From an uncultured delta proteobacterium (lineage in GTDB: Bacteria > Myxococcota_A > Polyangia > Fen-1088), in NCBI GenBank assembly GCA_963796685.1, contig CAWCMR010000017.1, positions 1 to 52,045 on the forward strand: 52,045 nucleotides of DNA. The letters are read 5' to 3'. Position 1 is the first letter of the stretch; the number at the start of each line of letters is the position of its first letter. The position numbers and the translations under genes were made by a program. Positions 8,197 through 52,024 of this stretch are shown piece by piece. A model generated the notes under the pieces. It did no database searches. It was not told the origin of the DNA and saw only the letters and a program-made list of their open reading frames with translations.

Positions 8197-8242
8197 GATT
8201 TCGATCGAGGTAGCGGAACCTTCAGCATAGAACGGACAAGAC

Positions 8243-8653
8243 ATGGCGACAGAGAACGAAGCAGCAGCGAAGCCGGCAAAGGTCAAGGTCAAGAAGGCGC
8301 GCAAGAGCGTCCAGAGCGGTATCGCGTATATCACCGCGTCCTTCAACAACACCATCGTTACCATCACCGACGTTTCCGGGAACGTGGTGTCCTGGTCCTC
8401 GGCTGGCGTCAAGGGCTTCAAAGGTTCGCGCAAGTCGACCCCGTTCGCCGCCCAACTTGCGGCCGACGATGCGGCCCACAAGGCGATGGAACACGGAATG
8501 AAGTCGATCAACGTCTTCATCCGTGGTCCGGGGTCGGGCCGCGAGTCGGCGCTGCGCGCGCTGGCTTCGGCCGGGTTCAAGATCAACGTGATCCGGGATC
8601 TTACCCCGATACCGCACAACGGTTGTAGGCCGCCCAAGCGGCGCAGGGTCTGA
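8243..8653 (+). CDS. rpsK: 30S ribosomal protein S11
   Basis: [12 protein letters not shown]...[14 protein letters not shown]...[13 protein letters not shown]. Confidence 0.99.
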
Positions 8654-8707
8654 TGGGACTTGGTTGGGTTTCTAGGACAGTGAAAGAACGAGGAAGGTAA
8701 AATACCG

Positions 8708-9337
8708 ATGGCGAAGTATTCCGGTCCGGTTTGCCGCTTGTGTCGCCGGGAAGACACCAAGCTCTTCTTGAAAGGCGACCGTTGCTATACCGACAAGTGC
8801 GGCTACGAGCGGCGGGCCTATGCGCCCGGCCAGCACGGGCAGGCGAGACGTAGGAAGCTCTCGAACTACGGCTCGCAGTTGCGCGAGAAACAGAAGCTCA
8901 AGCGCATGTATGGCCTCGCCGAACGGCAGTTCCGCGGCTACTACCAGAAGGCGACGCGTATGAAGGGGGTTGCCGGCGAGAATCTGCTCCAACTTCTCGA
9001 GCGCCGACTGGACAACGTCGTCTACCGCCTGGGGTTCGCCTCCGATCACGCCGAGGCCCGCCAGTTGGTGCGCCACGGACACTTCATGGTCAACGGCAAG
9101 AAAGTGAATATCCCTTCGTACCTCTGTGGCTTGAACGACGCCATCGTCGTCTGCGATCCTTCGAAGAAGGTGACGCGCATCCTCGAAAGCCTGGGTGCGG
9201 TGGATCGTCGGGGCGTGCCCAAGTGGCTGCAACTCGACAAGGACAATTTCCAGGGCAAGCTCGTGACACTGCCGTCGCGAGAGGATCTCACGATGACGGT
9301 CAGAGAGCAGCTCGTCGTCGAACTTTATTCCAAGTAG
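8708..9337 (+). CDS. rpsD: 30S ribosomal protein S4 (Zn-binding form)
   Basis: CRLCRRE...RCYTDKC; [22 protein letters not shown]; VVELYSK. Confidence 0.99.
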
Positions 9338-9387
9338 CCACCGCCGCTGCGAAGCTATTGATTCCTAGAATCGAACAGGAGAACAGG

Positions 9388-10434
9388 ATGTCGACCGCTA
9401 GTGCTCAGACCACCGCCGTCACGCCGTCTGCATTTATTGCAAGGAACTGGCGCGACCCCATCAGGCCACGCAAGCTTGAGGTGGACGCCGAATCGCTGAC
9501 GCCGAATTATGGCAAATTCGCCTGCGAGCCGCTCGAACGTGGTTTCGGAACCACCATCGGCAATGGCATTCGCAGGGTGCTTCTTTCGTCGTTGCAAGGC
9601 GCCGCCATCACCGCCGTGAAGATCGAAGGCGCCGTGCACGAGTTTACCTCGCTGCCGGAGGTCGCCGAGGACGTCACGGATATCGTGCTCAACCTGAAGG
9701 AAGTCATCATCCGTTCCCACGATGGCAAGCCGCACACGGTTCGCATCGACAAGGACGGTGAGGGCAAGGTTACGGCCAAGGATATCCAGTGCCCCGAGGG
9801 TATCGAGATCCTCAATCCCGACCACCACATCATGACCTGCTCCAAGGGCGCCAAGGTGCGCATGGAGCTCGACGTCGGAATCGGGCGCGGCTACGTTCCC
9901 GCCGACCGGAACAAGCAGCCCAACATGGCGGTTGGGGTCGTTCCCATCGACTCGCTTTTCTCGCCTATTCGCAAGGTCAATTTCAGCGTGACCAATGCGC
10001 GTGTCGGGCAGCAGACCGACTACGACCGCCTGACCCTCGAGGTGTGGACCAACGGCACGGTCAAACCCGAGGACGCCGTGGCCTATGCGGCCAAGATCTT
10101 CAAGGATCAGCTGTCCATCTTCATCAATTTCCAAGAGGGTGCCGAGCCGGCCCCCGAGGCCACGGTCTCCGAAGAGCAGCAGAAGCTCAACGAGAACCTG
10201 TGGAAATCGGTCGACGATTTGGAGCTGTCGGTGCGTTCGGCGAACTGCTTGCAGAACGCCAACATTCGCTACATCGGCGAGCTGGTGCAGAAGACCGAGT
10301 CCGACATGCTCAAGACCAAGAACTTCGGGCGCAAGTCGCTCAAGGAGATCAAGGAAATCCTCGCCGGCATGGGGCTTTCCCTGGGAATGAAATTGGAAGG
10401 CTGGCCTGGTGACGGCCCGCCGAAGAAGGCCTAG
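9388..10434 (+). CDS. rpoA: RNA polymerase subunit alpha
   Basis: [22 protein letters not shown]; [10 protein letters not shown]; [11 protein letters not shown]; ATG 9388 after AGGAG. Confidence 0.99.
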
Positions 10435-10527: not shown

Positions 10528-11169
10528 ATGCGACACAAGAGAGCTGGACTTCATCTTTCCCGAACGGCGGCCCACCGCAAGGCGCTGTTCTCCAACATGG
10601 TGTCGGCGCTGCTGACCTACGAGCGTATTCGCACCACGGCGGTCAAGGCCAAGGAGATCCGTCGCCTTGCCGAGCGCGCGATTACGTGGGCACGCAGGCT
10701 TGGCCCCATTCTCACCAAGAAGCCGGAGAAGCGCACCGACGAGGAGCGCTCCCGCGTGGTGCATGCCATGCGCATGGCCCTGCGGGTCGTTCGTGATCGC
10801 GACGCGGTCCTCAAGCTGTTCGAGGAGATCGGACCGCGCTTTCTCGCCCGTCATGGTGGCTACACGCGCATCATGAAGGTCGGTCAGCGGCCAGGCGACG
10901 CCGCCCCCATGGCGCTGTTGGAGCTGATCCCGGACGAGAACAGCAAGGCGGAGCCCAAGACCGCTCCCAAAGACAAGGGAACCAAGGAAGCCAAGGAGCC
11001 CGCCGAGGCCAAGGGCAAGGGCAAAGAGGCAGCTCCTGCCGAGCCCAAGGCCAAATCGAAGGCGAGGGCGGGGGCTGCGCCGAAGGTGAAGAAAGATGCT
11101 GGCGCTCGCGCACCGGCGAAGTCAGCCGCCACCATGAAACGCTCTGGCCGCAGCCGCGGTGGGGAATAG
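10528..11169 (+). CDS. rplQ: 50S ribosomal protein L17 with Lys/Ala-rich C-terminal tail
   Basis: MRHKRAG.HLSRT.AHRKAL...GGYTRIMK...GDAAPM. Confidence 0.97.
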   Translation: MRHKRAGLHLSRTAAHRKALFSNMVSALLTYERIRTTAVKAKEIRRLAERAITWARRLGPILTKKPEKRTDEERSRVVHAMRMALRVVRDRDAVLKLFEEIGPRFLARHGGYTRIMKVGQRPGDAAPMALLELIPDENSKAEPKTAPKDKGTKEAKEPAEAKGKGKEAAPAEPKAKSKARAGAAPKVKKDAGARAPAKSAATMKRSGRSRGGE

Positions 11170-11236
11170 TCAGCCGCGCTGGCGAGAATCGCCAGGGCGA
11201 AAAGACAGCGCGACTCTACCGCCGGTTCCGGGGGCG

Positions 11237-11266
11237 TTGACATGAGGCGTGTGGTGGCGGTAAGTC
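11237..11266 (+). promoter_or_regulatory. Putative sigma-70 promoter giving a leaderless fliO transcript
   Basis: TTGACA (11237-42), 18-nt spacer, TAAGTC (11261-66); predicted +1 falls on the A of ATG 11273. Confidence 0.45.
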
Positions 11267-11272
11267 CCAGGT

Positions 11273-11635
11273 ATGGGTGGTGCGCCGGGATCCGACCTCC
11301 CCAGCCTGGGGAGCTCACTTGTGCTGTCATTGGTTTCGCTGGCCCTGGTCTGCTTTGTCGCGTTCTTCGTCCTGCACTGGCTTGGCCGCAAAGGCGTCGG
11401 ACGTTCTGATGCCGGTGTGCGCGTCCTGGCTCGGTGCTTGCTCGAACCGCGACGTTCCGTCTATGTGATCGAAGCCGGAGGGCGCTGCTTCCTTGTTGGG
11501 GTGGGCGAGGGAGCCATGAGCCTGCTTGCGGAGATCGACAAGGCGGCTCTTCCCGCTCCACCCATTGACGCTGGCAAGATCCCGTCGAGCTTTGGCGATG
11601 TGCTCACCAGGGTGCTGCGGAGGCGCGGCCGATGA
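11273..11635 (+). CDS. fliO: FliO-like export-gate assembly protein
   Basis: Single N-terminal TM, then VRVLARCLLEPRRSVYVIEAGGRCFLVGVGEGAMSLLAEI (FliO pattern); precedes FliP-like gene. Confidence 0.8.
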   Translation: MGGAPGSDLPSLGSSLVLSLVSLALVCFVAFFVLHWLGRKGVGRSDAGVRVLARCLLEPRRSVYVIEAGGRCFLVGVGEGAMSLLAEIDKAALPAPPIDAGKIPSSFGDVLTRVLRRRGR

Positions 11636-12360
11636 ACCCGTTTCTCGCCACCGCAGTTTCGAATGGGGCGGGCGTGAACGGCACCCAGGGGCTTGCTTCG
11701 AGGCCGGTCCTGCTCTTCATCGCCATGGCCGCGGTTTCGATTCTGCCTTTCATCCTTCTTCTCATGACAAGCTTCGTGAAGATCGCGGTCGTGCTCTCGA
11801 TCTTGAAGAGTGCCCTCGGCGCGCCCCAGATCCCTCCCTCGCAGGTCATCACCGGGCTGGCCCTGATTCTGACCCTGTACGTCATGGCGCCGACCGGCGA
11901 GCGGATGTTCCGCGCCATCGCGCCAGACCTTGCCCAGGGCACCAGCGCCGATCTCGTGAGTGGACGAAGCCTCGAGGTGCTCCGCGGTGCGGCCGACAAA
12001 GCCAAGGAGCCCCTGCGTGAGTTTCTGCTCAGGCACGCGTCGTCCCGGGATCGCGGTCTGTTCCACGCCATGGCCTTGCGCATGCGAACGGTCGACGAGC
12101 GTGCCGGCATCACGGATCGCGATTTTCTCGTCCTGGTGCCCGCCTTTCTTACCTCGGAGCTACGCCGGGCTTTCGAGATCGGCCTGCTCCTGTTCATCCC
12201 ATTCCTGGTGGTGGACATGGTGATCTCGAATTTGTTGCTCGCCCTGGGCATGCACATGCTCTCGCCCACCGCGGTTTCGTTGCCATTCAAGTTGCTGCTC
12301 TTCGTGTTGGCAGATGGCTGGCAGCTTCTTCTGCGAGGGCTGGTGGAAAGCTATGTCTAG
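11632..12360 (+). CDS. sctR: Type III export gate subunit SctR/FliP
   Basis: MTSFVKIAVVLSILKSALG.PQIPP; PAFLTSEL..AFEIG; PFKLLLFVLADGW; SFVKI resembles SctR more than flagellar FliP (SFTRI). Confidence 0.9.
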   Translation: MNPFLATAVSNGAGVNGTQGLASRPVLLFIAMAAVSILPFILLLMTSFVKIAVVLSILKSALGAPQIPPSQVITGLALILTLYVMAPTGERMFRAIAPDLAQGTSADLVSGRSLEVLRGAADKAKEPLREFLLRHASSRDRGLFHAMALRMRTVDERAGITDRDFLVLVPAFLTSELRRAFEIGLLLFIPFLVVDMVISNLLLALGMHMLSPTAVSLPFKLLLFVLADGWQLLLRGLVESYV

Positions 12361-12631
12361 CCTCGCGACCACCGATGTCGTGTTGCGCGCGGTTCGGGAG
12401 GGTCTAATTCTCGTCCTGCTCGTCTCGGCCCCACCGCTGCTCGCCAGTTTGCTCGTTGGTCTCGTGGTCGGCGTGCTGCAAGCGGCGACCCAGATTTACG
12501 ATCCGGCCGTCGCGTATGTGCCGAAGTTGATCGCCGTGCTGCTGGTTCTGCTCGTGTCGGGGCCGCTGCTCGGGGCGCAGGTGGTGCGCTTCGCGCAGGC
12601 CTTACTGTTGGCCATTCCGACGGTCCGCTAG
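12353..12631 (+). CDS. sctS: Type III export gate subunit SctS/FliQ
   Basis: SAPPLLASLLVGLVVGVLQAATQI...VPKLIAV; ATG 12353 overlaps the sctR end. Confidence 0.9.
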   Translation: MSSLATTDVVLRAVREGLILVLLVSAPPLLASLLVGLVVGVLQAATQIYDPAVAYVPKLIAVLLVLLVSGPLLGAQVVRFAQALLLAIPTVR

Positions 12632-12632
12632 A

Positions 12633-12986
12633 CTGGCCCGCATCGTTCATCACGGATAGGATCACTAACGGGAATGCACAAACAGACTGGTCTCCAATAC
12701 AGCGAAGAGTGGCGGGCTAGCCTGGATCGTCATGGGAACCCTGACCTGGAACCACCTCGCCCCGCGCAGCGGGGAGAGGTCGCCGCGCGAAGCGCGTCGG
12801 GTGAGGGGCTGTCACGTTTCATGACCGAAGGATCCGGGCCTTGGGCCCGGCGGCGGTACTGGAAGGGTTCGCAAACCCTCCCGCGACGCTTCGCTGCCGG
12901 CGAAGCCGGCAGGCTCCGCACGCGCCTTCCTAGCCCGCATAGACGTAGACGTCGAGTTGGTGCGACTCGTGAATGATGCGGGCTAG
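12633..12986. mobile_element. Composite MITE-like element (copy 1) with nested insertion
   Basis: Aligns by eye over its length with the reverse complement of 51798-52024; ends ctggcccgcatcgttca / tgaatgatgcgggctag; extra ~118 bp at 12744-12861. Confidence 0.75.
12742..12811. repeat. REP-like palindrome family B
   Basis: tgacctggaa..cctcgccccgcgcagcggggagagg...gggtgaggggctg, also at 36761-36890. Confidence 0.8.
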
Positions 12987-12999
12987 GGAGTCTCTCGCT

Positions 13000-13782
13000 T
13001 TGTCGCCCACGGATATCCAACATTTTCTTGGTGCGCTGGTAATCGGATCGGCGCGCACGCTTCCGATGGCATGGTCGATCCCGGCGTTCGGGGGGCCGCA
13101 CTTGCCGGGGCGGATTCGTGTTGCGATTGGGATGGCTCTTTCGTTCTTGTGCTTGCCGGTGCTTGCCCATTCCGAGCCGACGGGCGGAGCCGTCTTGTGG
13201 GGGCTGCTCCTTGCCCGCGAGGTGATGGTGGGAATCGTGATGGGCTTTGTCGGTGCGTGCATGTTTCGCGCAGCGGAGGCCGCCGGCTATCTCACGGACA
13301 TCTTGCGCGGAGCCTCCATGTCCGACGCACTTTCGCCCATGGGCGCGGGCAAGAGCAGCCCCTTGGGCGCGCTGATGCTTCTCCTATCCATCGTCGTGTT
13401 TTTCGAGATCGGCGGTCCGGTACATTTGACCGCGGCTCTGGTACGCAGCTACGAGGCCATCCCATTCGCCGTCCCTGTTGGTTTCGGCGGGCGGCCCAAC
13501 ACCATGGCGATGGTCGCCATTGCGGCGTCGGCCAAGCTCATCGAAGCGGCTGTCGGATTGTGCGCTCCCGCCATCGTCGCACTGCTGCTAGCCGATATCG
13601 TGCTCGGGATGGTCGGGCGAGCCGTCCCACAGATCCCACTCTATTTTGTCGGAATGCCCCTCAAGGCGCTGCTCGGCGTGGGCGCGTTTCTGCTCGGGCT
13701 GGCCGGCATGGACGCCGCCATGCAGCATAGTCTTCACGGCTTCTTCGATCTGCTGGGCTCCGCGTTTCAAACCCGTCCATGA
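13000..13782 (+). CDS. sctT: Type III export gate subunit SctT/FliR
   Basis: PAFGG..LPGRIR; REVMVGIVMG; AEAAG.LTD.LRG; RAVPQIPLYFVGMPLK; TTG 13000 after AGGGAG (ATG 12973 of ORF track lies in the MITE end). Confidence 0.88.
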   Translation: MSPTDIQHFLGALVIGSARTLPMAWSIPAFGGPHLPGRIRVAIGMALSFLCLPVLAHSEPTGGAVLWGLLLAREVMVGIVMGFVGACMFRAAEAAGYLTDILRGASMSDALSPMGAGKSSPLGALMLLLSIVVFFEIGGPVHLTAALVRSYEAIPFAVPVGFGGRPNTMAMVAIAASAKLIEAAVGLCAPAIVALLLADIVLGMVGRAVPQIPLYFVGMPLKALLGVGAFLLGLAGMDAAMQHSLHGFFDLLGSAFQTRP

Positions 13783-13797
13783 TTGGTTTCACCCGCC

Positions 13798-14853
13798 ATG
13801 GCTGAAGCGTCTCCTGAAGAGAGAAACCAGGCGCCGACCTCGAGACGGATCGCGCAGATGCGTGGTGCCGGCCACGTTGCAATCAGCCGCGATCTTGCAT
13901 CGGCCATGGTCATGGCCTCAGCCTGCGGGGTGCTGGTCGCGAAGGCGAGGGCTGGGACTGCGACGCTTGTCTATGCCATGCGCGAGGCGCTGATTGGTGC
14001 GACGAGCCCAGTCGAGTCTTCCTCGATCTCCACAGCCGTGCGGGCCGGGGCCGAGGTGGCGGCGACGACGCTGGCTCTGCCTCTCGGCGTGCTATGCCTG
14101 ACGGCATGTCTCGTGGTCGCGGCGCAGACGCGAGGGCTCGTGACCGCCAGGCCGTTGCGACCGGCCCTAGGGCGGATCGTTCCTTCCCTCGCCAGGGTGT
14201 TGGGGCGCGACAAGCTGATCGAGGCGGGCAAAGGGATGCTGGGCGTGGGCCTCCTTCTTGTCGTCGCATGGTGGTGCCTCCCTCCCGCCCTGGCGACGAT
14301 CGTTCCCCCAGGCACGCCGAGCGCGGCCCAGATCCTTCGCGCCGTGGGGGCCGTCGCGCGGCACCTGGGAATCCGCCTGACGCTGGCCATGCTGGCGATG
14401 GGAGCCGTCGACTACTATTGGCAGCGCCATCGGCACGGGAAAGCGTTGCGCATGAGCCGAGACGAGGTAAAGCGTGAGCTCAGGGAAATCGAAGGCGAGC
14501 CGGCGTACAGAGCAGAACGGCTTCGCCTCCATCGTGAAGGCATGCAGGAACAGGCGTTAGAGGACGTGCTCAGGGCGAATTTCGTCGTTGTTCAATCCGG
14601 GGTCAGGGCCGCCGCCATCCGCTACGAAGGTGGCGGAGGGTTGGCCCCGTTCGTGATGGTCCGGGGCACGCACCTTCGGGCGCAGGCCATCGAGGACGTC
14701 GCGCGAACGGCCCAGGTGCCCGTCTTCGTCGATCCCCATCTCGCTCGCGCGCTCTCGGCCGTGGACGATGGCGAGGAGATCCCCGAGGCACTCTACGAAC
14801 AGGTCGCCGAGTGGCTGGTGCGAGCTCGCAGCTTGGGCCGCTCGTCCAACTAG
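13798..14853 (+). CDS. sctU: Type III export switch protein SctU/FlhB, lacking NPTH
   Basis: ERNQAPTSRRI..R..GHVAISRDL; LRMSRDEVKRELREIEGEP; LARAL...GEEIPEALYEQVAE. Confidence 0.88.
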   Translation: MAEASPEERNQAPTSRRIAQMRGAGHVAISRDLASAMVMASACGVLVAKARAGTATLVYAMREALIGATSPVESSSISTAVRAGAEVAATTLALPLGVLCLTACLVVAAQTRGLVTARPLRPALGRIVPSLARVLGRDKLIEAGKGMLGVGLLLVVAWWCLPPALATIVPPGTPSAAQILRAVGAVARHLGIRLTLAMLAMGAVDYYWQRHRHGKALRMSRDEVKRELREIEGEPAYRAERLRLHREGMQEQALEDVLRANFVVVQSGVRAAAIRYEGGGGLAPFVMVRGTHLRAQAIEDVARTAQVPVFVDPHLARALSAVDDGEEIPEALYEQVAEWLVRARSLGRSSN

Positions 14854-14862
14854 GAAGCTGCA

Positions 14863-17152
14863 GTGGGATCCAGGCAAGCCTCTCCATTCGCGAAGGCGTC
14901 GGGCGCGCAAGCACTGCTCGAGGTCGCGGTGGCGCTGCCTCTGGCGGATGTCTTCACCTACCGTGATTCTCCGAGGGACGCGCCGCTTGCCTTGGGATCG
15001 CAGGTGATCGTGCCCTTCGGCCGAAGAACCGTGACCGGCTTCGTTGTCGGGTACGCCAAGAGTGACGGCGCGGGTGCGGACAAGGATGTGCGCGAGATTC
15101 TCGAGGCCGTGGGCACCGGCCCCGCCCTGGATGAATCGCTGCTCGCTCTCTGTCGTTGGGCTGCCAGCTACTACCTCGCTCCACTCGGCGAGGTCTTGAA
15201 CGCCGCCCTTCCGAGCGGCGAGCGCGCCTCCGCCTCCAGGCGCGTGCGGCTGACAAGAGCGGGGCTGGCCGCGGTGGCGGAAGGGAGGCCCTCCGGGCTT
15301 GCCGCGATGGCGCTCGACGCTGGAGATCGCGCGCTCTTGGCCCGACTCCAGAAAGCCCGCACCCTCAGCCTGACGGGAATTGCCCGCGCCTCGTCGGCGG
15401 AATCGTCGCGCGTGAGCTTTCTTGTCGAGCGAGGGTTTGTCGAGATCGCGAACACCGTTCGTGGGGCCAAGCGAAAACGAGGCGCTGACGATGACGGCGC
15501 GCTGCCCGCTGTTGCCGAGCCAGACCAGCTACCCACGCTCAACGACTGCCAGCGGGATGCGTTCACGGCTCTGCTCGGCGCTCTTGGCCAAGGCTACGCA
15601 ACCTTCGTCCTGCAAGGAATTACCGGCTCGGGGAAGACCGAGGTCTATCTGAGGATCATCGCCGAGGCGCGGAAGCGCGGGCTCGGCGCGCTGGTCTTGG
15701 TGCCGGAGATTGCGTTGACACCGCAGCTTGCCGCCCGTTTTCGTGCTCGTTTCGGTGACGATGTGGCCGTTCTGCACAGCGGCTTGCCCGCGGGCGAGCG
15801 GGCGGCCTCTTGGCGGCGGCTGCGCCGGGGCGAAGTTGGCATCGCGGTCGGCGCGCGCTCTGCGGTGTTCGCACCCGTGCGCGACCTTGCCGTGGTCGTG
15901 GTCGACGAGGAGCATGATGGCTCCTTCAAGCAAGAAGACGGCTTTCGCTACAACGCGCGCGATCTGGCGGTCATGCGCGCCAGCCTTGGCCGTGCCATCG
16001 CCATCTTGGGCTCGGCGACCCCTTGTCTCGAAACCTATCGCAACGTCATGGTCGGCCGCTTCACCAGACTGCTTCTGCCCGTGCGAGCGAACCCCGCTGC
16101 GGCCAAGCGACCACTGCCACCGGTCGATATCATCGATCTGCGCCGGCACCAGGTAGGGCCCGACGGGCTGCTTTCTCCGCCGCTTGTCATGGCGGTGGAG
16201 CAAGCGCTGGCGGCGGGAGAACAGTCGATCCTGTTTCTCAACCGACGTGGCTTTTCCACCTTCGTCCACTGCGTGGCGTGTGGTCACGTCGTGCGCTGCC
16301 AGGACTGCGCGGTTTCGCTCACCCTGCACCAGGCGCGGGGGCGCCTGCTCTGCCACTACTGCGGCCGCGCCGAGCCTGTCCGCGACCTTTGTCCGGTGTG
16401 CAAGGGCAAGAGCCTGCAGGGAATGGGAAGCGGCACCGAACGCGTGGAGGCGCTCGTCCGCCAGCGCTTTCCACAGGCGCGCGTGGCTCGCCTCGATCGC
16501 GACAGCGGGGTCAGCGGGCGTGGCCAGGCTGGAGGCGTTTCTCGACCGGGTTCACCGACGCGAGATCGACATCTTGGTTGGGACCCAGATGGTGACCAAG
16601 GGGCACGACTTCGGTGGCGTGACCCTGGTTGGCGTCCTTCAGCCGGACCAGGGCATCCACCTACCGGACTTCCGTGCCTCCGAGCGTGCGTTCCAGATCA
16701 TGGAACAGGTGGCGGGTAGGGCAGGGCGCGGCGAAAGCCCGGGCCGCATTCTCGTCCAGACCTACAACCCCGAGCACCCCGCTATCCGTTTCCTTCAGCA
16801 ACATGACTACGAGGGCTTCGTGCAAGACGAGCTGGGGCATCGGCAGGAGGCGCACTACCCCCCGTACGCGCGCATGGTCGTGTTGCGCCTGGACGGGACG
16901 GACGCCGGCGCCGTCCGAGAAGCGGCGAGTGCGACGGCATCCCGCGCGCGCTCGGTCGCGGACTCGGCGGTGCGCGTCTTGGGACCATCCGAGGCACCCA
17001 TTGCGCGCTTGCGGGGACGAGCCCGCTTTCAGGTCTGGCTGTCGAGCAGCGATCGGGGGAAACTACTCACCGTGACCCGAACAACGCAACGTGTGTCGCT
17101 TCCCCGAGGCGTGCGTCTTGAGGTAGATGTAGATCCACAGAGTGTCCTGTGA
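14863..17152 (+). CDS. priA: Primosomal protein N' (PriA), split by a +1 frameshift near 16507-16510
   Basis: GITGSGKTEVY, LVPEIALTPQ, VDEEHD, CxxC clusters in ORF 14863-16719; ILVGTQMVTKGHDF...QVAGRAGR...DVDP in ORF 16184-17152. Confidence 0.93.
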
Positions 17153-25718: not shown

Positions 25719-25794
25719 CGCGTGGGGGAGCCGGCGGGCTTTGCCGGCGAACCATCGCGGGAGGGTTTGGGAACCCTCCCGCGATGGTTCCCAT
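25719..25794. repeat. REP-like family A copy forming a perfect 19-bp hairpin
   Basis: gaaccatcgcgggagggtt-tggg-aaccctcccgcgatggttc (25749-25790); flanks match 51855-51932. Confidence 0.8.
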
Positions 25795-36718: not shown

Positions 36719-36760
36719 CGGTGGCGAGGCTTTCGCGGCGAATGACCGAAATGGAACCCA

Positions 36761-36890
36761 TGACCTGGAAACACCTCGCCCCGCGCAGCGGGGAGAGGAC
36801 AGACGCGAGAGAATCTTGGCCGCGAAGCCCACGCCTCGCCCCGCGCAGCGGGGAGAGGTCGCCGAGCGTAGCGAGGCGGGTGAGGGGCTG
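36761..36890. repeat. REP-like family B, tandem pair
   Basis: cctcgccccgcgcagcggggagagg at 36774-36798 and 36834-36858, second followed by ...gggtgagggg; also at 12755-12779. Confidence 0.8.
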
Positions 36891-36909
36891 CCGCATTTCG
36901 GCCTCCGCG

Positions 36910-42982: not shown

Positions 42983-43870
42983 CTAGCGCAGGATCTTCGC
43001 CAGCACGGCGTCGAGCTCGTCGAGGGAGGTGTAGTAGAGCTCCAGGCGGCCGCTCTTGGGGCTCGACTCGACCAACTTCACCCGCGTGGCGAGCGCCTGT
43101 TCCAACCGGCGGACCAAGTCCCGCGCTGCGGGCGAGGCCGTGGTCGGGGCCGGGGCCGGGCGGTTGTCGTTTGCGCGTTCGCGCTTGACCAGGGCCTCGA
43201 CCTGCCGGACCGAGAGGCCGCGGCTGGCTGCCTGGCGCGCCAGGCGTTCGATGGCCGGGTCGCTTTCGAGTCCCAGCAGGGCCCGTGCATGACCCATGTT
43301 CAGACGACCTTCGATGACCATGCCGCGAACCGCGGGCGGCAGCTTGAGCAGACGGAGGGCGTTGGCGACCGTGCTGCGATCCTTGCCCACGCGGGCCGAG
43401 AGCGATTCCTGGGTGTAGCCGAACTCGGCCACCAGGCGCTGGTAGCCCTCGGCCTCCTCGATGGGATTGAGATCTTCGCGCTGCAGGTTTTCGACCAGGG
43501 CCATTTCGAAGGCCTGCGACTCGGCCACTTCGCGGACCACCGCGGGCACCTGGTGCAGGCCCGCGCGCTGGGCCGCCCGCCAGCGGCGCTCGCCGGCCAC
43601 CAGCTCGAAGCCGCCGCCTTCTCGCACGCGCACGACCAAGGGTTGAATGATGCCCTGGCTGCGAATGGATTCGGCCAGCTCGTCGAGGCGGCTGTCGTCG
43701 AAGTGTTTGCGCGGTTGCTTGCTCGAGGGATGGATGCTTTCGATATCGAGCGTGCGCAGCCCGCTGCCGGCCGGGGCGGGCCCGCCGGAGTCGCTGGTGG
43801 ATTCGCTGGCGTTCGGAATCAAGGCCGCCAACCCGCGTCCCAAGGCTTGTCGCTTGCCGCCGGAATTCAT
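42983..43870 (-). CDS. parB: Chromosome partitioning protein ParB
   Basis: ALGRGLAALI, QPRKHF, LVAGERRWRA, ENLQREDLNPIEEA, GKDRSTVANALRLL. Confidence 0.97.
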   Translation of the reverse strand: MNSGGKRQALGRGLAALIPNASESTSDSGGPAPAGSGLRTLDIESIHPSSKQPRKHFDDSRLDELAESIRSQGIIQPLVVRVREGGGFELVAGERRWRAAQRAGLHQVPAVVREVAESQAFEMALVENLQREDLNPIEEAEGYQRLVAEFGYTQESLSARVGKDRSTVANALRLLKLPPAVRGMVIEGRLNMGHARALLGLESDPAIERLARQAASRGLSVRQVEALVKRERANDNRPAPAPTTASPAARDLVRRLEQALATRVKLVESSPKSGRLELYYTSLDELDAVLAKILR

Positions 43871-44667
43871 GCGGGTGTTCCCCCCTCGGCTTGGCGGGTG
43901 TGGCGGGTCAGGAACTCGCGTGCGGCTTCCATGTAGCTCTTGGCACCTTTCGAAGCCACATCGTAGAGCAAAATGGGCTTGCCGAACGAGGGTGCTTCGG
44001 ACAAACGCACGTTGCGCGGAATGGGTGTGTCGTAGACCCGGTCGCCGAAGTGGTTGCGGACCTCGCTCGAGACCTGCTCGGTCAAGTTCTGCCTCGTGTC
44101 GACCATGCACAGAATGATGCCTTCGATGTCGAGGCCGGGATTGAGCGAACGGCCCACCAACCCGACGGTGGCGCGCAGGTCCGACAGTCCCTCGAGCGCA
44201 TAGTATTCGCACTGCAAGGGCACGAGGACGCCGTCGGCCGCGCACAGGGCGTTCAGGGTGAGCAAGCCCAGCGAAGGCGGGGTGTCGATGATGATGAAGT
44301 CGTACTCGGGGGCTGCCAGGCGCAACGGATCGCGCAGCTTCATCTCGCGGCCGGGCAGGGAGACGAGCTCGATTTCGGCTCCGGTCAGGTCCTGGCCCGA
44401 TGGCACGAGCTTGAGGAATGGCAACTCGGTGGCGCGGGTGACCTCGGCGATGCTCTTCCTTCCGATGAGCACGTCGTAGACGCTGCCGCCGTCGCCACCG
44501 GCCGATTGGCGCGCCTGTCCGAGTCCCGAGGTGGCGTTGCCCTGCGGATCCATGTCCACCAGAAGGACACGCTTCTCCGCCACGGCGAGTGAGGCCGATA
44601 AGTTGACTGCGGTGGTCGTCTTGCCGACGCCGCCCTTCTGGTTCGCAACCGCGATGACCCGGCCCAT
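43867..44667 (-). CDS. parA: Chromosome partitioning ATPase ParA/Soj
   Basis: ANQKGGVGKTTT, DMDPQGNAT, DTPPSLG, QCEYYALEG, IPRNVRLSEAPSFG. Confidence 0.97.
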   Translation of the reverse strand: MGRVIAVANQKGGVGKTTTAVNLSASLAVAEKRVLLVDMDPQGNATSGLGQARQSAGGDGGSVYDVLIGRKSIAEVTRATELPFLKLVPSGQDLTGAEIELVSLPGREMKLRDPLRLAAPEYDFIIIDTPPSLGLLTLNALCAADGVLVPLQCEYYALEGLSDLRATVGLVGRSLNPGLDIEGIILCMVDTRQNLTEQVSSEVRNHFGDRVYDTPIPRNVRLSEAPSFGKPILLYDVASKGAKSYMEAAREFLTRHTRQAEGGTPA

Positions 44668-44859
44668 GAAATGTCGTCGCCCAGGCGTTGGGGAGCACCC
44701 TCCTAGCACCAACGCCATGAGGTTTTCAACTTCGTCCGTGGCCTGCGTGTGCGGCGGCGAGAAAAAAGCGAAAAATTGACGACAGCCGCAGACGTCGTAC
44801 TACTTGTACCTACATGTAGCATTTTTCCCTGCAACCCCAGCCAACGAGGAGAACAGGAC

Positions 44860-45039
44860 ATGAAGTACGGCGACCAGAGGATTTACCGGACCTTCGAAGA
44901 GTTCGAACGCGAAGAGCTGCGTAGGACAGACGGATTGAGCAGCGGGATGGATGACATGCTCGGCGAGATGTTCGCCCAGGAGCTCGATTTCGACATCAAG
45001 TCGTCGCGCCGGGAAGCCGTCGACGACGAAGAAGATTGA
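44860..45039 (+). CDS. Small acidic hypothetical protein (59 aa)
   Basis: GAGGAG RBS, ATG 44860; MKYGDQRIYRTFEEFEREELRR...DDEED. Confidence 0.65.
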   Translation: MKYGDQRIYRTFEEFEREELRRTDGLSSGMDDMLGEMFAQELDFDIKSSRREAVDDEED

Positions 45040-45053
45040 GAGAAGCAAGGCGA

Positions 45054-51797: not shown

Positions 51798-52024
51798 CTA
51801 GCCCGCGCTATTCACGAGTCGCGCCAACACGATATCCCGTGCGGGCTGGGCAAACGCGTGCGGAGCCTGCCGGCTTTGCCGGCAGCGAAGCGTCGCGGGA
51901 GGGTTTGGGAACCCTTCCAGGGTTCCCATGACAATAGTCTAGCCCGCCACTCTTCGGTCCACAGAAGACAGTCCGCTTGGGCATTTTCGTCGGCAATCCT
52001 TTCGTGGTGAATAATGCGGGCTAG
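51798..52024. mobile_element. Composite MITE-like element (copy 2, uninterrupted)
   Basis: Terminal inverted repeats ctagcccgcgctattcac / gtgaataatgcgggctag, internal gcgggctgg and ctagcccgc, central REP family A; homologous to 12633-12986. Confidence 0.75.

Follow-up and report, generated by a model that had tools for sequence, protein, structure and literature searches.

We analysed a stretch of DNA from an uncultured delta proteobacterium, referred to here as the window, which comprises the entire 52-kb contig C17 (52,045 nucleotides) of the genome under study (G000); the codes G001 to G026 denote the genomes of relatives and L codes their loci. The window carries five genes, fliO-sctR-sctS-sctT-sctU (positions 11273-14853), between the ribosomal alpha operon and priA. 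This operon very probably encodes the export gate of a complete but scattered type III secretion system (T3SS) core, one that is free of secretin and needle and resembles the "Myxo" T3SS and the T3SS* of Myxococcus xanthus, with the remaining core parts encoded elsewhere in the genome.

The five genes are uninterrupted, co-oriented open reading frames (ORFs) on the + strand, and all of their products score above the Pfam gathering scores, so that the FliP, Bac_export_3, Bac_export_1, and Bac_export_2 families of an export gate are encoded contiguously and in the same orientation (Table 1). When compared with NCBIfam models, the sctR product passed the cut-off of SctR (216.8; cut-off 208.6) and failed that of FliP (201.2; cut-off 217.45). 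The sctT and sctU products also scored higher with the non-flagellar models (SctT 135.0 vs FliR 126.5; SctU 195.1 vs FlhB 182.7), and the sctS product scored higher with FliQ (78.4) than with SctS (61.4), with no cut-off being reached in any of these three comparisons. The fliO product obtained a score of 53.0 on the FliO model, slightly below the cut-off of 55.25; its orthologues occupy the equivalent position in relatives, and FliO is presumed to serve as the assembly chaperone of the R subunit. The R subunit contains the motif TSFVKIAVV, which resembles TSFVKFAVV of YscR, whereas three flagellar FliPs, including the copy encoded on contig C8, have TSFTRIIIV. The gene junctions are tight, with a 4-nt overlap between fliO and sctR, an overlap between sctR and sctS, and sctT abutting sctU; only sctS and sctT are set apart, by a gap of 341 bp.

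Genome-wide family scans revealed that the T3SS core genes form two sets, a flagellar cluster on C8 and a dispersed second set. Besides the gate on C17, the dispersed set includes genes for SctV, SctN, SctL, SctJ, and an SctQ-like protein at four further sites flanked by housekeeping genes, two of them ∼20 kb apart on C14 and two ∼0.5 Mb apart on C25. The N-terminal half of SctV scored 491 bits with the SctV model vs 417 bits with FlhA, the short YscJ-type partner, a lipoprotein, scored 148.5 bits with SctJ vs 36.9 bits with FliF, and the ATPase passed the SctN cut-off (605.8; cut-off 604.75) while scoring 572.8 bits with FliI. Sct models thus outscored the flagellar ones for R, T, U, V, N, and J, and S alone favored a flagellar model (FliQ). 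The divergent SctQ-like gene has an intact orthologue in G001 (538 aa; FliMN_C score of 42.4). The sigma factor encoded with SctJ is FliA/WhiG-like but under the family cut-off (145 vs 189.6 bits). The product of orf291, a gene conserved directly upstream of sctL, had no Pfam or NCBIfam match; its AlphaFold2 model (pLDDT 84, pTM 0.75) and a language-model lead to Atlas FliG clusters (0.91) were obtained, and it is probably an SctK/FliG-like adaptor, given its structural matches together with a gene position comparable to those in fliG-fliH-fliI and sctK-sctL...sctN. The two other genes at the SctJ site were rejected as core parts; neither product had a family match, and tblastn matches to orf265 were limited to G002, G010, G006, and G011 and those to orf174 to G002 and G010. 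Two proteins with forkhead-associated (FHA) and zinc-ribbon domains are encoded on the minus strand of C14 (40907-43394), head-to-head with the SctQ-like gene, and both also pass the Pfam model for the cytoplasmic domain of Yop-YscD (SctD); they could link the sorting platform to signaling or replace SctD.

Neither hallmark of a canonical injectisome was found in G000. There was no SctC-type secretin, the only two secretin-domain genes being those for PilQ (417.6) and GspD (449.8), which adjoin PilM and GspE/F genes on other contigs, and no PF09392 match at E ≤ 0.1 that would indicate an SctF needle, although short, fast-evolving proteins of this kind can escape detection. Matches to rod and hook families in G000 were confined to the flagellar cluster on C8.

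We investigated the lineage of the gate by using a tree of concatenated R, S, T, and U sequences (48 rows, 904 columns), for which the LG+G4 and LG+C20 models gave identical topologies; Yersinia Ysc, Shigella Mxi-Spa, and Bradyrhizobium Rhc served as references, and M. xanthus and chlamydial sequences were not among the rows. Sixteen gates of the window type form a clade (Shimodaira-Hasegawa-like approximate likelihood ratio test [SH-aLRT] support of 95), and the 15 relatives within it all adjoin rplQ and/or priA. This clade is nested in a 24-row Myxococcota clade together with Archangium and Myxococcaceae clusters (SH-aLRT 98-99), apart from the Ysc, Mxi-Spa, and Rhc references. The flagellar sequences constitute a separate clade of nine rows that includes the C8 set (SH-aLRT 100), and the window gate lies outside it. 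The SctN/FliI ATPase tree mirrors the gate tree. The nearest named relatives are metagenome-assembled genomes (MAGs) labelled Myxococcota or Polyangia, and the probable assignment to the class Polyangia is based on these labels only. The set groups with the T3SSs of Myxococcales outside of the flagellar and other non-flagellar T3SS (NF-T3SS) clades, and it shares with the Myxo-type NF-T3SS the missing secretin, needle, and flagellum-specific rod, hook, and motor genes; what it does not share is the single compact locus of fixed gene order. On the basis of the family models and the gate and ATPase trees, we assign the scattered set to the secretin-less, needle-less "Myxo" kind of T3SS of the Myxococcota, apart from the flagellar genes of C8.

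The dispersed arrangement is itself conserved. The gene priA lies directly downstream of sctU in all 14 gate loci of relatives, and 11 of the 14 have rplQ ahead of the gate, the exceptions being G010 (a different upstream region), G023 (where sctU-priA alone was found), and G025 (start of a contig). Three loci from named Myxococcota/Polyangia MAGs, retrieved with the SctR alignment as query, also exhibit the rplQ-gate-priA arrangement; a search of named genomes with SctU alone as query returned zero relatives. G001 (9 contigs) and G021, which belongs to a different family, show the four-way dispersal as well. The sigma factor gene adjoins sctJ in 12 of 13 loci of relatives, the contig of G011 stopping short of the sigma position, and orf291, sctL, and sctN occur together in at least seven relatives. 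Within the family, an SctJ-type gene is present in 18/18 genomes, and seven of the 18 (G001, G003, G005, G008, G009, G013, and G017) possess single, exclusively Sct-type copies of U, V, N, and J. Elsewhere the equivalent parts are united: Archangium and Myxococcales MAGs have one locus with the order J ... L-N ... Q-like ... FliO-R-S-T-U ... V, and in four further loci, which carry the labels Pseudomonadota, Deltaproteobacteria, and Bryobacterales/Bryobacteraceae, a compact sigma-J-L-N-Q-(O)-R-S-T cluster begins with a homologue of the C25 sigma factor (34-42 % identity).

These results bear on the proposal, made in an earlier note on this DNA, that the operon is an orphan gate. Its description of the region is borne out: the ORFs and Pfam matches agree with five intact, co-oriented genes between rplQ and priA, the conservation of that synteny, which it had proposed to check, extends to the relatives as given above, the SctR-like signature is present, and so is the affinity to Myxococcota. 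Family scans likewise agree that the window holds no other T3SS gene, within the bounds set by the contig ends; besides the gate, no match on this contig was obtained for FHIPEP, FliP, YscJ_FliF, FliI/YscN, FliMN_C, flagellin, secretin, SctF, or the rod/hook families in the whole-genome scans. That absence of a partner on 52 kb, with housekeeping genes on both sides, is what speaks for FliO-SctRSTU acting alone as a repurposed exporter devoid of SctV, ATPase, and rings. Such a stand-alone gate is nevertheless scarcely credible, as Sct-type V, J, L, N, and Q genes reside elsewhere in the genome, co-occur in relatives, and share the phylogeny of the gate, and the equivalent parts form one cluster in Archangium and other MAGs. 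The word orphan has to be dropped in favor of the fallback offered in the same note, a split locus of such a system.

The genome also encodes a flagellum. A complete flagellar cluster at ∼65-106 kb of C8 contains FliF, FliI, FliM/FliN, six rod/hook-family genes, two flagellins, its own FliO-FliP-(FliQ)-FliR-FlhB-FlhA, FlhF, a MinD/ParA-type FlhG, and a bona fide FliA. Because the gate and the flagellar cluster share a contig in G004, both systems belong to one organism and are not a binning artefact. Of the 18 relatives in the family, 11 have the flagellar cluster and in seven it was not found, which suggests that flagella were gained or lost within one family. The window operon might be a second, paralogous FliOPQR-FlhB gate that serves this flagellum as a spare or under particular conditions, as could be argued from the presence of FliO, the preference of the S subunit for the FliQ over the SctS model, and the FliA-like sigma factor that accompanies the set in a flagellated genome. 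We regard this as highly improbable: the C8 cluster owns a FliO/P/Q/R/FlhB/FlhA set, the window genes fall outside the flagellar clade, their ring partner is a short SctJ-type lipoprotein and not FliF, and relatives without rod/hook, FliF, FlhA, and FliI genes retain the set. In five tested flagellum-less relatives that keep the system, no rod/hook genes were detected (0/5; positive control G000). A complete canonical set elsewhere in the genome had been foreseen by the earlier note as the home in which the window genes might branch; the flagellar set exists, but the window genes branch outside of it.

Pairwise ratios of nonsynonymous to synonymous substitution rates (dN/dS), calculated against G002, G010, and G001, were 0.07-0.15 for sctR, 0.09 for sctS (the G000-G001 pair was discarded because the extracted ORF contained an upstream stop), 0.15-0.22 for fliO, 0.18-0.31 for sctT, and 0.36-0.42 for the whole of sctU (0.29-0.48 per domain); the controls gave 0.01-0.02 for rpoA, 0.05-0.13 for rplQ, and 0.13-0.17 for priA. 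Judged by these ratios, the gate genes, both SctU domains included, are under purifying selection, and the relaxed selection that would signal decay, another outcome considered beforehand, was not found (range 0.07-0.48).

Several points weigh against the assignment of the operon to a complete, scattered T3SS core. With G000 being 88.6 % complete, the absence of secretin and needle means only that they were not found. Genes for SctI, SctO, and an SctD containing a transmembrane ring domain were not identified, nor were any substrates. The gate trees are quick IQ-TREE searches with SH-aLRT support. The structural matches of orf291 are weak: the best fold match, PscK (Z 5.5, root-mean-square deviation of 3.5 Å over 123 residues), was the sole chain of 48,161 with Z ≥ 5 and is a weak hit for a helical protein, FliG domains gave Z 4.4-4.9, and the top Foldseek match was FliG at E 0.63, with PscK at E 1.3. 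Among the gate genes, sctU is under the weakest constraint (dN/dS ∼0.4), and its product no longer has a motif that studied systems require for switching. The sctS-sctT gap within the operon is occupied by a repeat element. Finally, three genes are frame-split in G000: sctV by two +1 insertions relative to G002 (C25:1,130,981 and 1,131,757), the SctQ-like gene (C14:43.4-45.0 kb), and priA by a +1 insertion at 16527 relative to G002 and G010.

The SctU, repeat, and SctV/SctQ features also favor the view that the operon is a decaying relic, namely a non-working gate left over from a T3SS that was formerly compact and is now disappearing. The M. xanthus T3SS loci were at one time annotated as relics (according to the accessible text of PMC3459982). 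We consider this improbable. None of the five gate genes is disrupted in G000 or in the 13-14 relatives examined, every gene and both SctU domains have dN/dS values well below 1, promoter footprints are conserved, and the family-wide retention of SctJ noted above is accompanied by an SctV that is intact in nearly all relatives, the closest included. The frameshifts match the background of the assembly, in which 18 of 138 ORFs (13 %) that are ≥200 aa and intact in G002 and have a clear orthologue are frame-split in G000, two of them more than once. Because of this background and the intact SctV of nearly all relatives, the SctV frameshifts look like assembly noise and not decay, with this one genome being less certain; SctV as a pseudogene in G000 was accordingly set aside. 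The G000 assembly is rich in single-base insertions, the housekeeping gene priA included, and its gene calls need care. The repeat between sctS and sctT is shared, in part, with G002 alone; it is missing from G010 and others, in which sctS abuts sctT. Its family consists of units of ∼50-220 bp, with further copies in the window at 25719-25780, 36753-36899, and 51812-52024. A 100-aa ORF inside the repeat (orfX100, 12674-12976) has no Pfam or NCBIfam match and was rejected as a gene. In related genomes the sctT/sctU junction seems to be a recurrent insertion point of the operon: 0.8-3 kb separate the two genes in L036 of G026 (8216-9561), L062 (∼4.4-7.2 kb), and L063 (∼4.3-5.1 kb).

The cytoplasmic domain of the window SctU lacks the N↓PTH motif of the SctU/FlhB proteins, and alignment and tblastn showed that QSGV occupies its place. 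In studied flagellar and injectisome systems, autocleavage at N↓PTH drives the switching of substrate specificity. The FlhB of C8 and the other flagellar/injectisome loci examined have NPTH, and the Myxococcia clusters, Polyangia MAGs, G016, G017, G021, and G025 have NPDH or NPEH. Within the genus the site forms a stepwise series from NPHV (G007) through EPGV, DPGV, and EPGR (G009, G005, and G008, respectively) and ERGV (G004) to QDGV (G001) and QSGV (G010, G002, and G000); the motif was lost independently in G026. Loss of the asparagine should abolish cleavage of SctU, and an SctU that is not cleaved would suit a machine that has neither needle nor hook to measure. Compact Myxococcia clusters contain, after sctU, a separate 90-aa gene that resembles the C-terminal domain of FlhB only (L064 10937-11218, L065 10913-11185, and L068 10901-11176, from Archangium/Myxococcales MAGs); none was seen beside the sctU of the window.

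Table 1. Location of the gate operon, its flanking features, and the dispersed partner genes. Positions are those of the window (C17) unless another contig is given.
Feature	Position	Strand	Description
rplQ	10528..11169	+	ribosomal protein L17, final alpha-operon gene; Pfam Ribosomal_L17 107.9 bits
promoter-like footprint TTGACA-N18-TAAGTC	11237..11266	+	ends 6 nt before the fliO ATG
fliO-like gene	11273..11635	+	120 aa; Pfam FliO 51.6 bits (cut-off 22)
sctR	11632..12360	+	242 aa, export-gate pore subunit; Pfam FliP 221.6 bits
sctS/fliQ-type gene	12353..12631	+	∼92 aa, gate subunit; ORF opens at 12314; Pfam Bac_export_3 79.3 bits
interspersed-repeat insertion	12632..12972	.	341 bp, between sctS and sctT; 184 blastn matches genome-wide
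sctT	12973..13782	+	269 aa, gate subunit; Pfam Bac_export_1 157.5 bits
sctU	13783..14853	+	356-aa ORF, switch-type gate subunit; Pfam Bac_export_2 228.4 bits
QSGV in place of N↓PTH	14593..14604	+	SctU residues 271-274
priA	14863..17152	+	primosomal helicase, two frames in the assembly; Pfam PriA_3primeBD, DEAD, PriA zinc ribbon
SctV gene	C25:1,129,913-1,131,960		between hisD and an aldehyde-dehydrogenase-like gene; FHIPEP match
sigma factor, orf265, SctJ, orf174	C25:1,622,812-1,625,634		SctJ is a 245-aa YscJ-type protein
orf291, FliH/SctL, SctN	C14:20,573-23,618		between typA/bipA and a HIT gene; SctN is the T3SS ATPase
SctQ-like gene	C14:∼43,455-45,042		divergent, SpoA domain; FliMN_C 28.9 bits (cut-off 23.8)

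Two of the gene starts merit comment. Translation of sctS probably begins at the internal ATG near 12353, as a stop precedes that ATG in the G001 orthologue, and sctU probably starts at the ATG at 13798. Upstream of the gate are rpoA and rplQ, and priA begins 9 nt past the sctU stop. The longest rpoA ORF (9223-10434; 403 aa, GTG start) is matched in frame by relatives only from residue ∼40-60 onward; it is probably extended at the N terminus, with the true start further downstream.

Of 13 aligned upstream regions, 11 share the promoter-like footprint ahead of fliO, while the rest of the spacer is unalignable; G010, which lacks rplQ at this place and whose DNA similarity begins at window position 11235, has retained it as well. 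Its conservation amid an unalignable spacer and its persistence in G010 suggest that the gate has its own promoter, with a very short leader or none, and transcription from it probably continues into priA. A sigma-70 consensus scan of the rplQ-fliO spacer called no promoter, the footprint included, and no + strand terminator; the rplQ stop is followed by a 7-bp inverted repeat without a T-run. A similar conserved footprint precedes the sigma factor gene on C25 in 9 of 10 genomes, the pattern for both being TTGAC[A/G]-N18-TA.GTC. This motif was not seen upstream of the sctK-like/sctL/sctN operon, and its relaxed form occurs three times genome-wide, no more than the rough composition expectation of ∼6, so a common promoter motif or regulon is not supported. 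Upstream of sctV, a CCCGATAT block is conserved in only three of the four closest genomes. This block, which resembles the −10 element of sigma-28, is part of a palindrome, CCGATATCGG, that lies ∼90 nt upstream of sctV in G000, G002, and G010 (C25:1,129,860-1,129,890), in a spacer shared with the divergently transcribed hisD; G004 shares the flanking block, and its core is CCCGTCAC.

The preferred interpretation, a scattered Myxo-type core, can be put in historical and mechanistic terms. An ancestral compact cluster of the order sigma-J-K?-L-N-Q-O-R-S-T-U-V (SctK being questionable), which persists in Archangium, Myxococcaceae, and a few further MAGs, would have been broken up early in the lineage, probably in the class Polyangia, with the pieces then becoming fixed; the gate piece would have come to use its own conserved promoter and to run straight into priA. 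For assembly, expression, and exported cargo we infer the following. By analogy with solved T3SSs, FliO would aid the assembly of an R5S4T1 pore with SctU, SctV and a ring of SctJ would encircle the pore, and SctN, SctL, SctQ, and possibly SctK would dock beneath. Substrates may cross the inner membrane into the periplasm or pass to another envelope machine, and an SctU devoid of the autocleavage site would probably handle a single substrate class with no specificity switch. A bolder proposal, which we advance tentatively and think rather unlikely to hold in full, is that the lineage preserves a living flagellum-injectisome intermediate that is more indispensable than the flagellum: a needle- and secretin-less T3SS with FliO, a FliA-like sigma factor, and a FliG/SctK-like adaptor, wired into housekeeping operons by way of the gate promoter that reads toward priA, with SctU autocleavage lost in the genus. 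It would be a switch-less, one-class periplasmic exporter with a general envelope role, and not a device for injection into host or prey.

The needle-less T3SS* of M. xanthus reportedly corresponds to MXAN_2434-2464, a designation attributed to Thiery et al. in 2022. Prey lysis by M. xanthus depends on this T3SS*, which is recruited by Kil, a Tad pilus system, whose gene clusters include FHA proteins (accessible text of PMC12075869 and PMC10433427 for the former and of PMC10433427 for the FHA proteins). The scattered set may likewise be a prey-lysis machine that cooperates with a Tad-like Kil pilus in contact-dependent delivery of lytic effectors; it belongs to the same lineage as the Myxococcia clusters in the gate and ATPase trees, and FHA proteins adjoin its SctQ-like gene. 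This role is possible but doubtful, since no third secretin of the Tad/Kil type was found beside PilQ and GspD in G000 (88.6 % complete; no direct search for Kil genes was made), and the Archangium clusters in the trees may be of either the "long" (prey-lysis) or the "short" M. xanthus type.

Much of what the window contains has precedents, as far as the accessible text of the cited papers shows. Secretin-less, needle-less Myxo T3SSs were described in 2012 as compact "short" and "long" loci of the Cystobacterineae, for which an intermediate tree position was also reported (Abby & Rocha, PMC3459982), and FliO within a Myxococcota non-flagellar T3SS has likewise been published (PMC12403147). The earlier note's characterization of the operon as an undescribed system of hybrid composition is thus unsupported on both counts. 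Our literature search, to which the supplements of these papers (PMC12403147 Dataset S2 and PMC3459982 Figure S4/Datasets) were out of reach, yielded no scattered Myxo-type T3SS in Polyangia, no fragmented Myxo-type system with its gate fixed beside priA across families, no retention of a Myxo-type T3SS where flagellar genes are missing, and no natural SctU, or series of SctUs, losing the cleavage motif. Three features hence appear to be undescribed so far: the fragmentation and gate position beside priA, conserved across several families; the persistence of the system in relatives without flagellar genes; and the decay of the SctU site in this genus, from the NPDH/NPEH of its kin to QSGV, in a gene that remains under purifying selection.

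Cluster-based detectors, such as TXSScan-style rules or homology to the M. xanthus clusters, would miss or under-call a T3SS scattered in this manner, and such under-calling may explain the report, in the accessible text of PMC11821767, that Myxococcota other than Myxococcaceae are poor in T3SS genes. The lineage lends itself to studying the role of a needle-less T3SS beyond the M. xanthus predation model because it combines a conserved, fragmented Myxo-type system, retention without flagella, and an SctU series from NPDH to QSGV; the series permits a test of the importance of autocleavage in a system devoid of a needle to measure.

Compared with known systems, the scattered set is closest to the "Myxo" NF-T3SS. 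It agrees with that system in lineage according to the gate and ATPase trees, in a core of R, S, T, U, V, J, L, N, and Q-like parts, in the lack of any secretin or SctF found here, in the inclusion of FliO (cf. PMC12403147), and in the NPDH/NPEH site of SctU in the wider clade. Unlike the compact Myxo loci of conserved order, it is spread over five sites among housekeeping genes with the gate fixed beside priA, its SctU cleavage motif has been lost in this genus, and its host also has a true flagellum (which some relatives do not). Division of a complete core among several chromosomal loci is shared with the T3SS of Chlamydiales, for which scattering has been linked to constitutive expression (Abby & Rocha, accessible text of PMC3459982). 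In contrast, the chlamydial systems, which inject eukaryotic cells, possess both needle and secretin, and the window gate is far from the injectisome references in a tree that held no chlamydial sequence. With the flagellar FliOPQR-FlhB the window operon has in common homologous proteins, the gene order O-P-Q-R-FlhB, FliO itself, and a FliA-family sigma factor that accompanies the scattered set; it differs in its separate clade, its SctR-type motif, an SctJ-type ring in place of FliF, the missing NPTH, the absence of rod, hook, and filament genes nearby, and the retention of the set in flagellum-less relatives.

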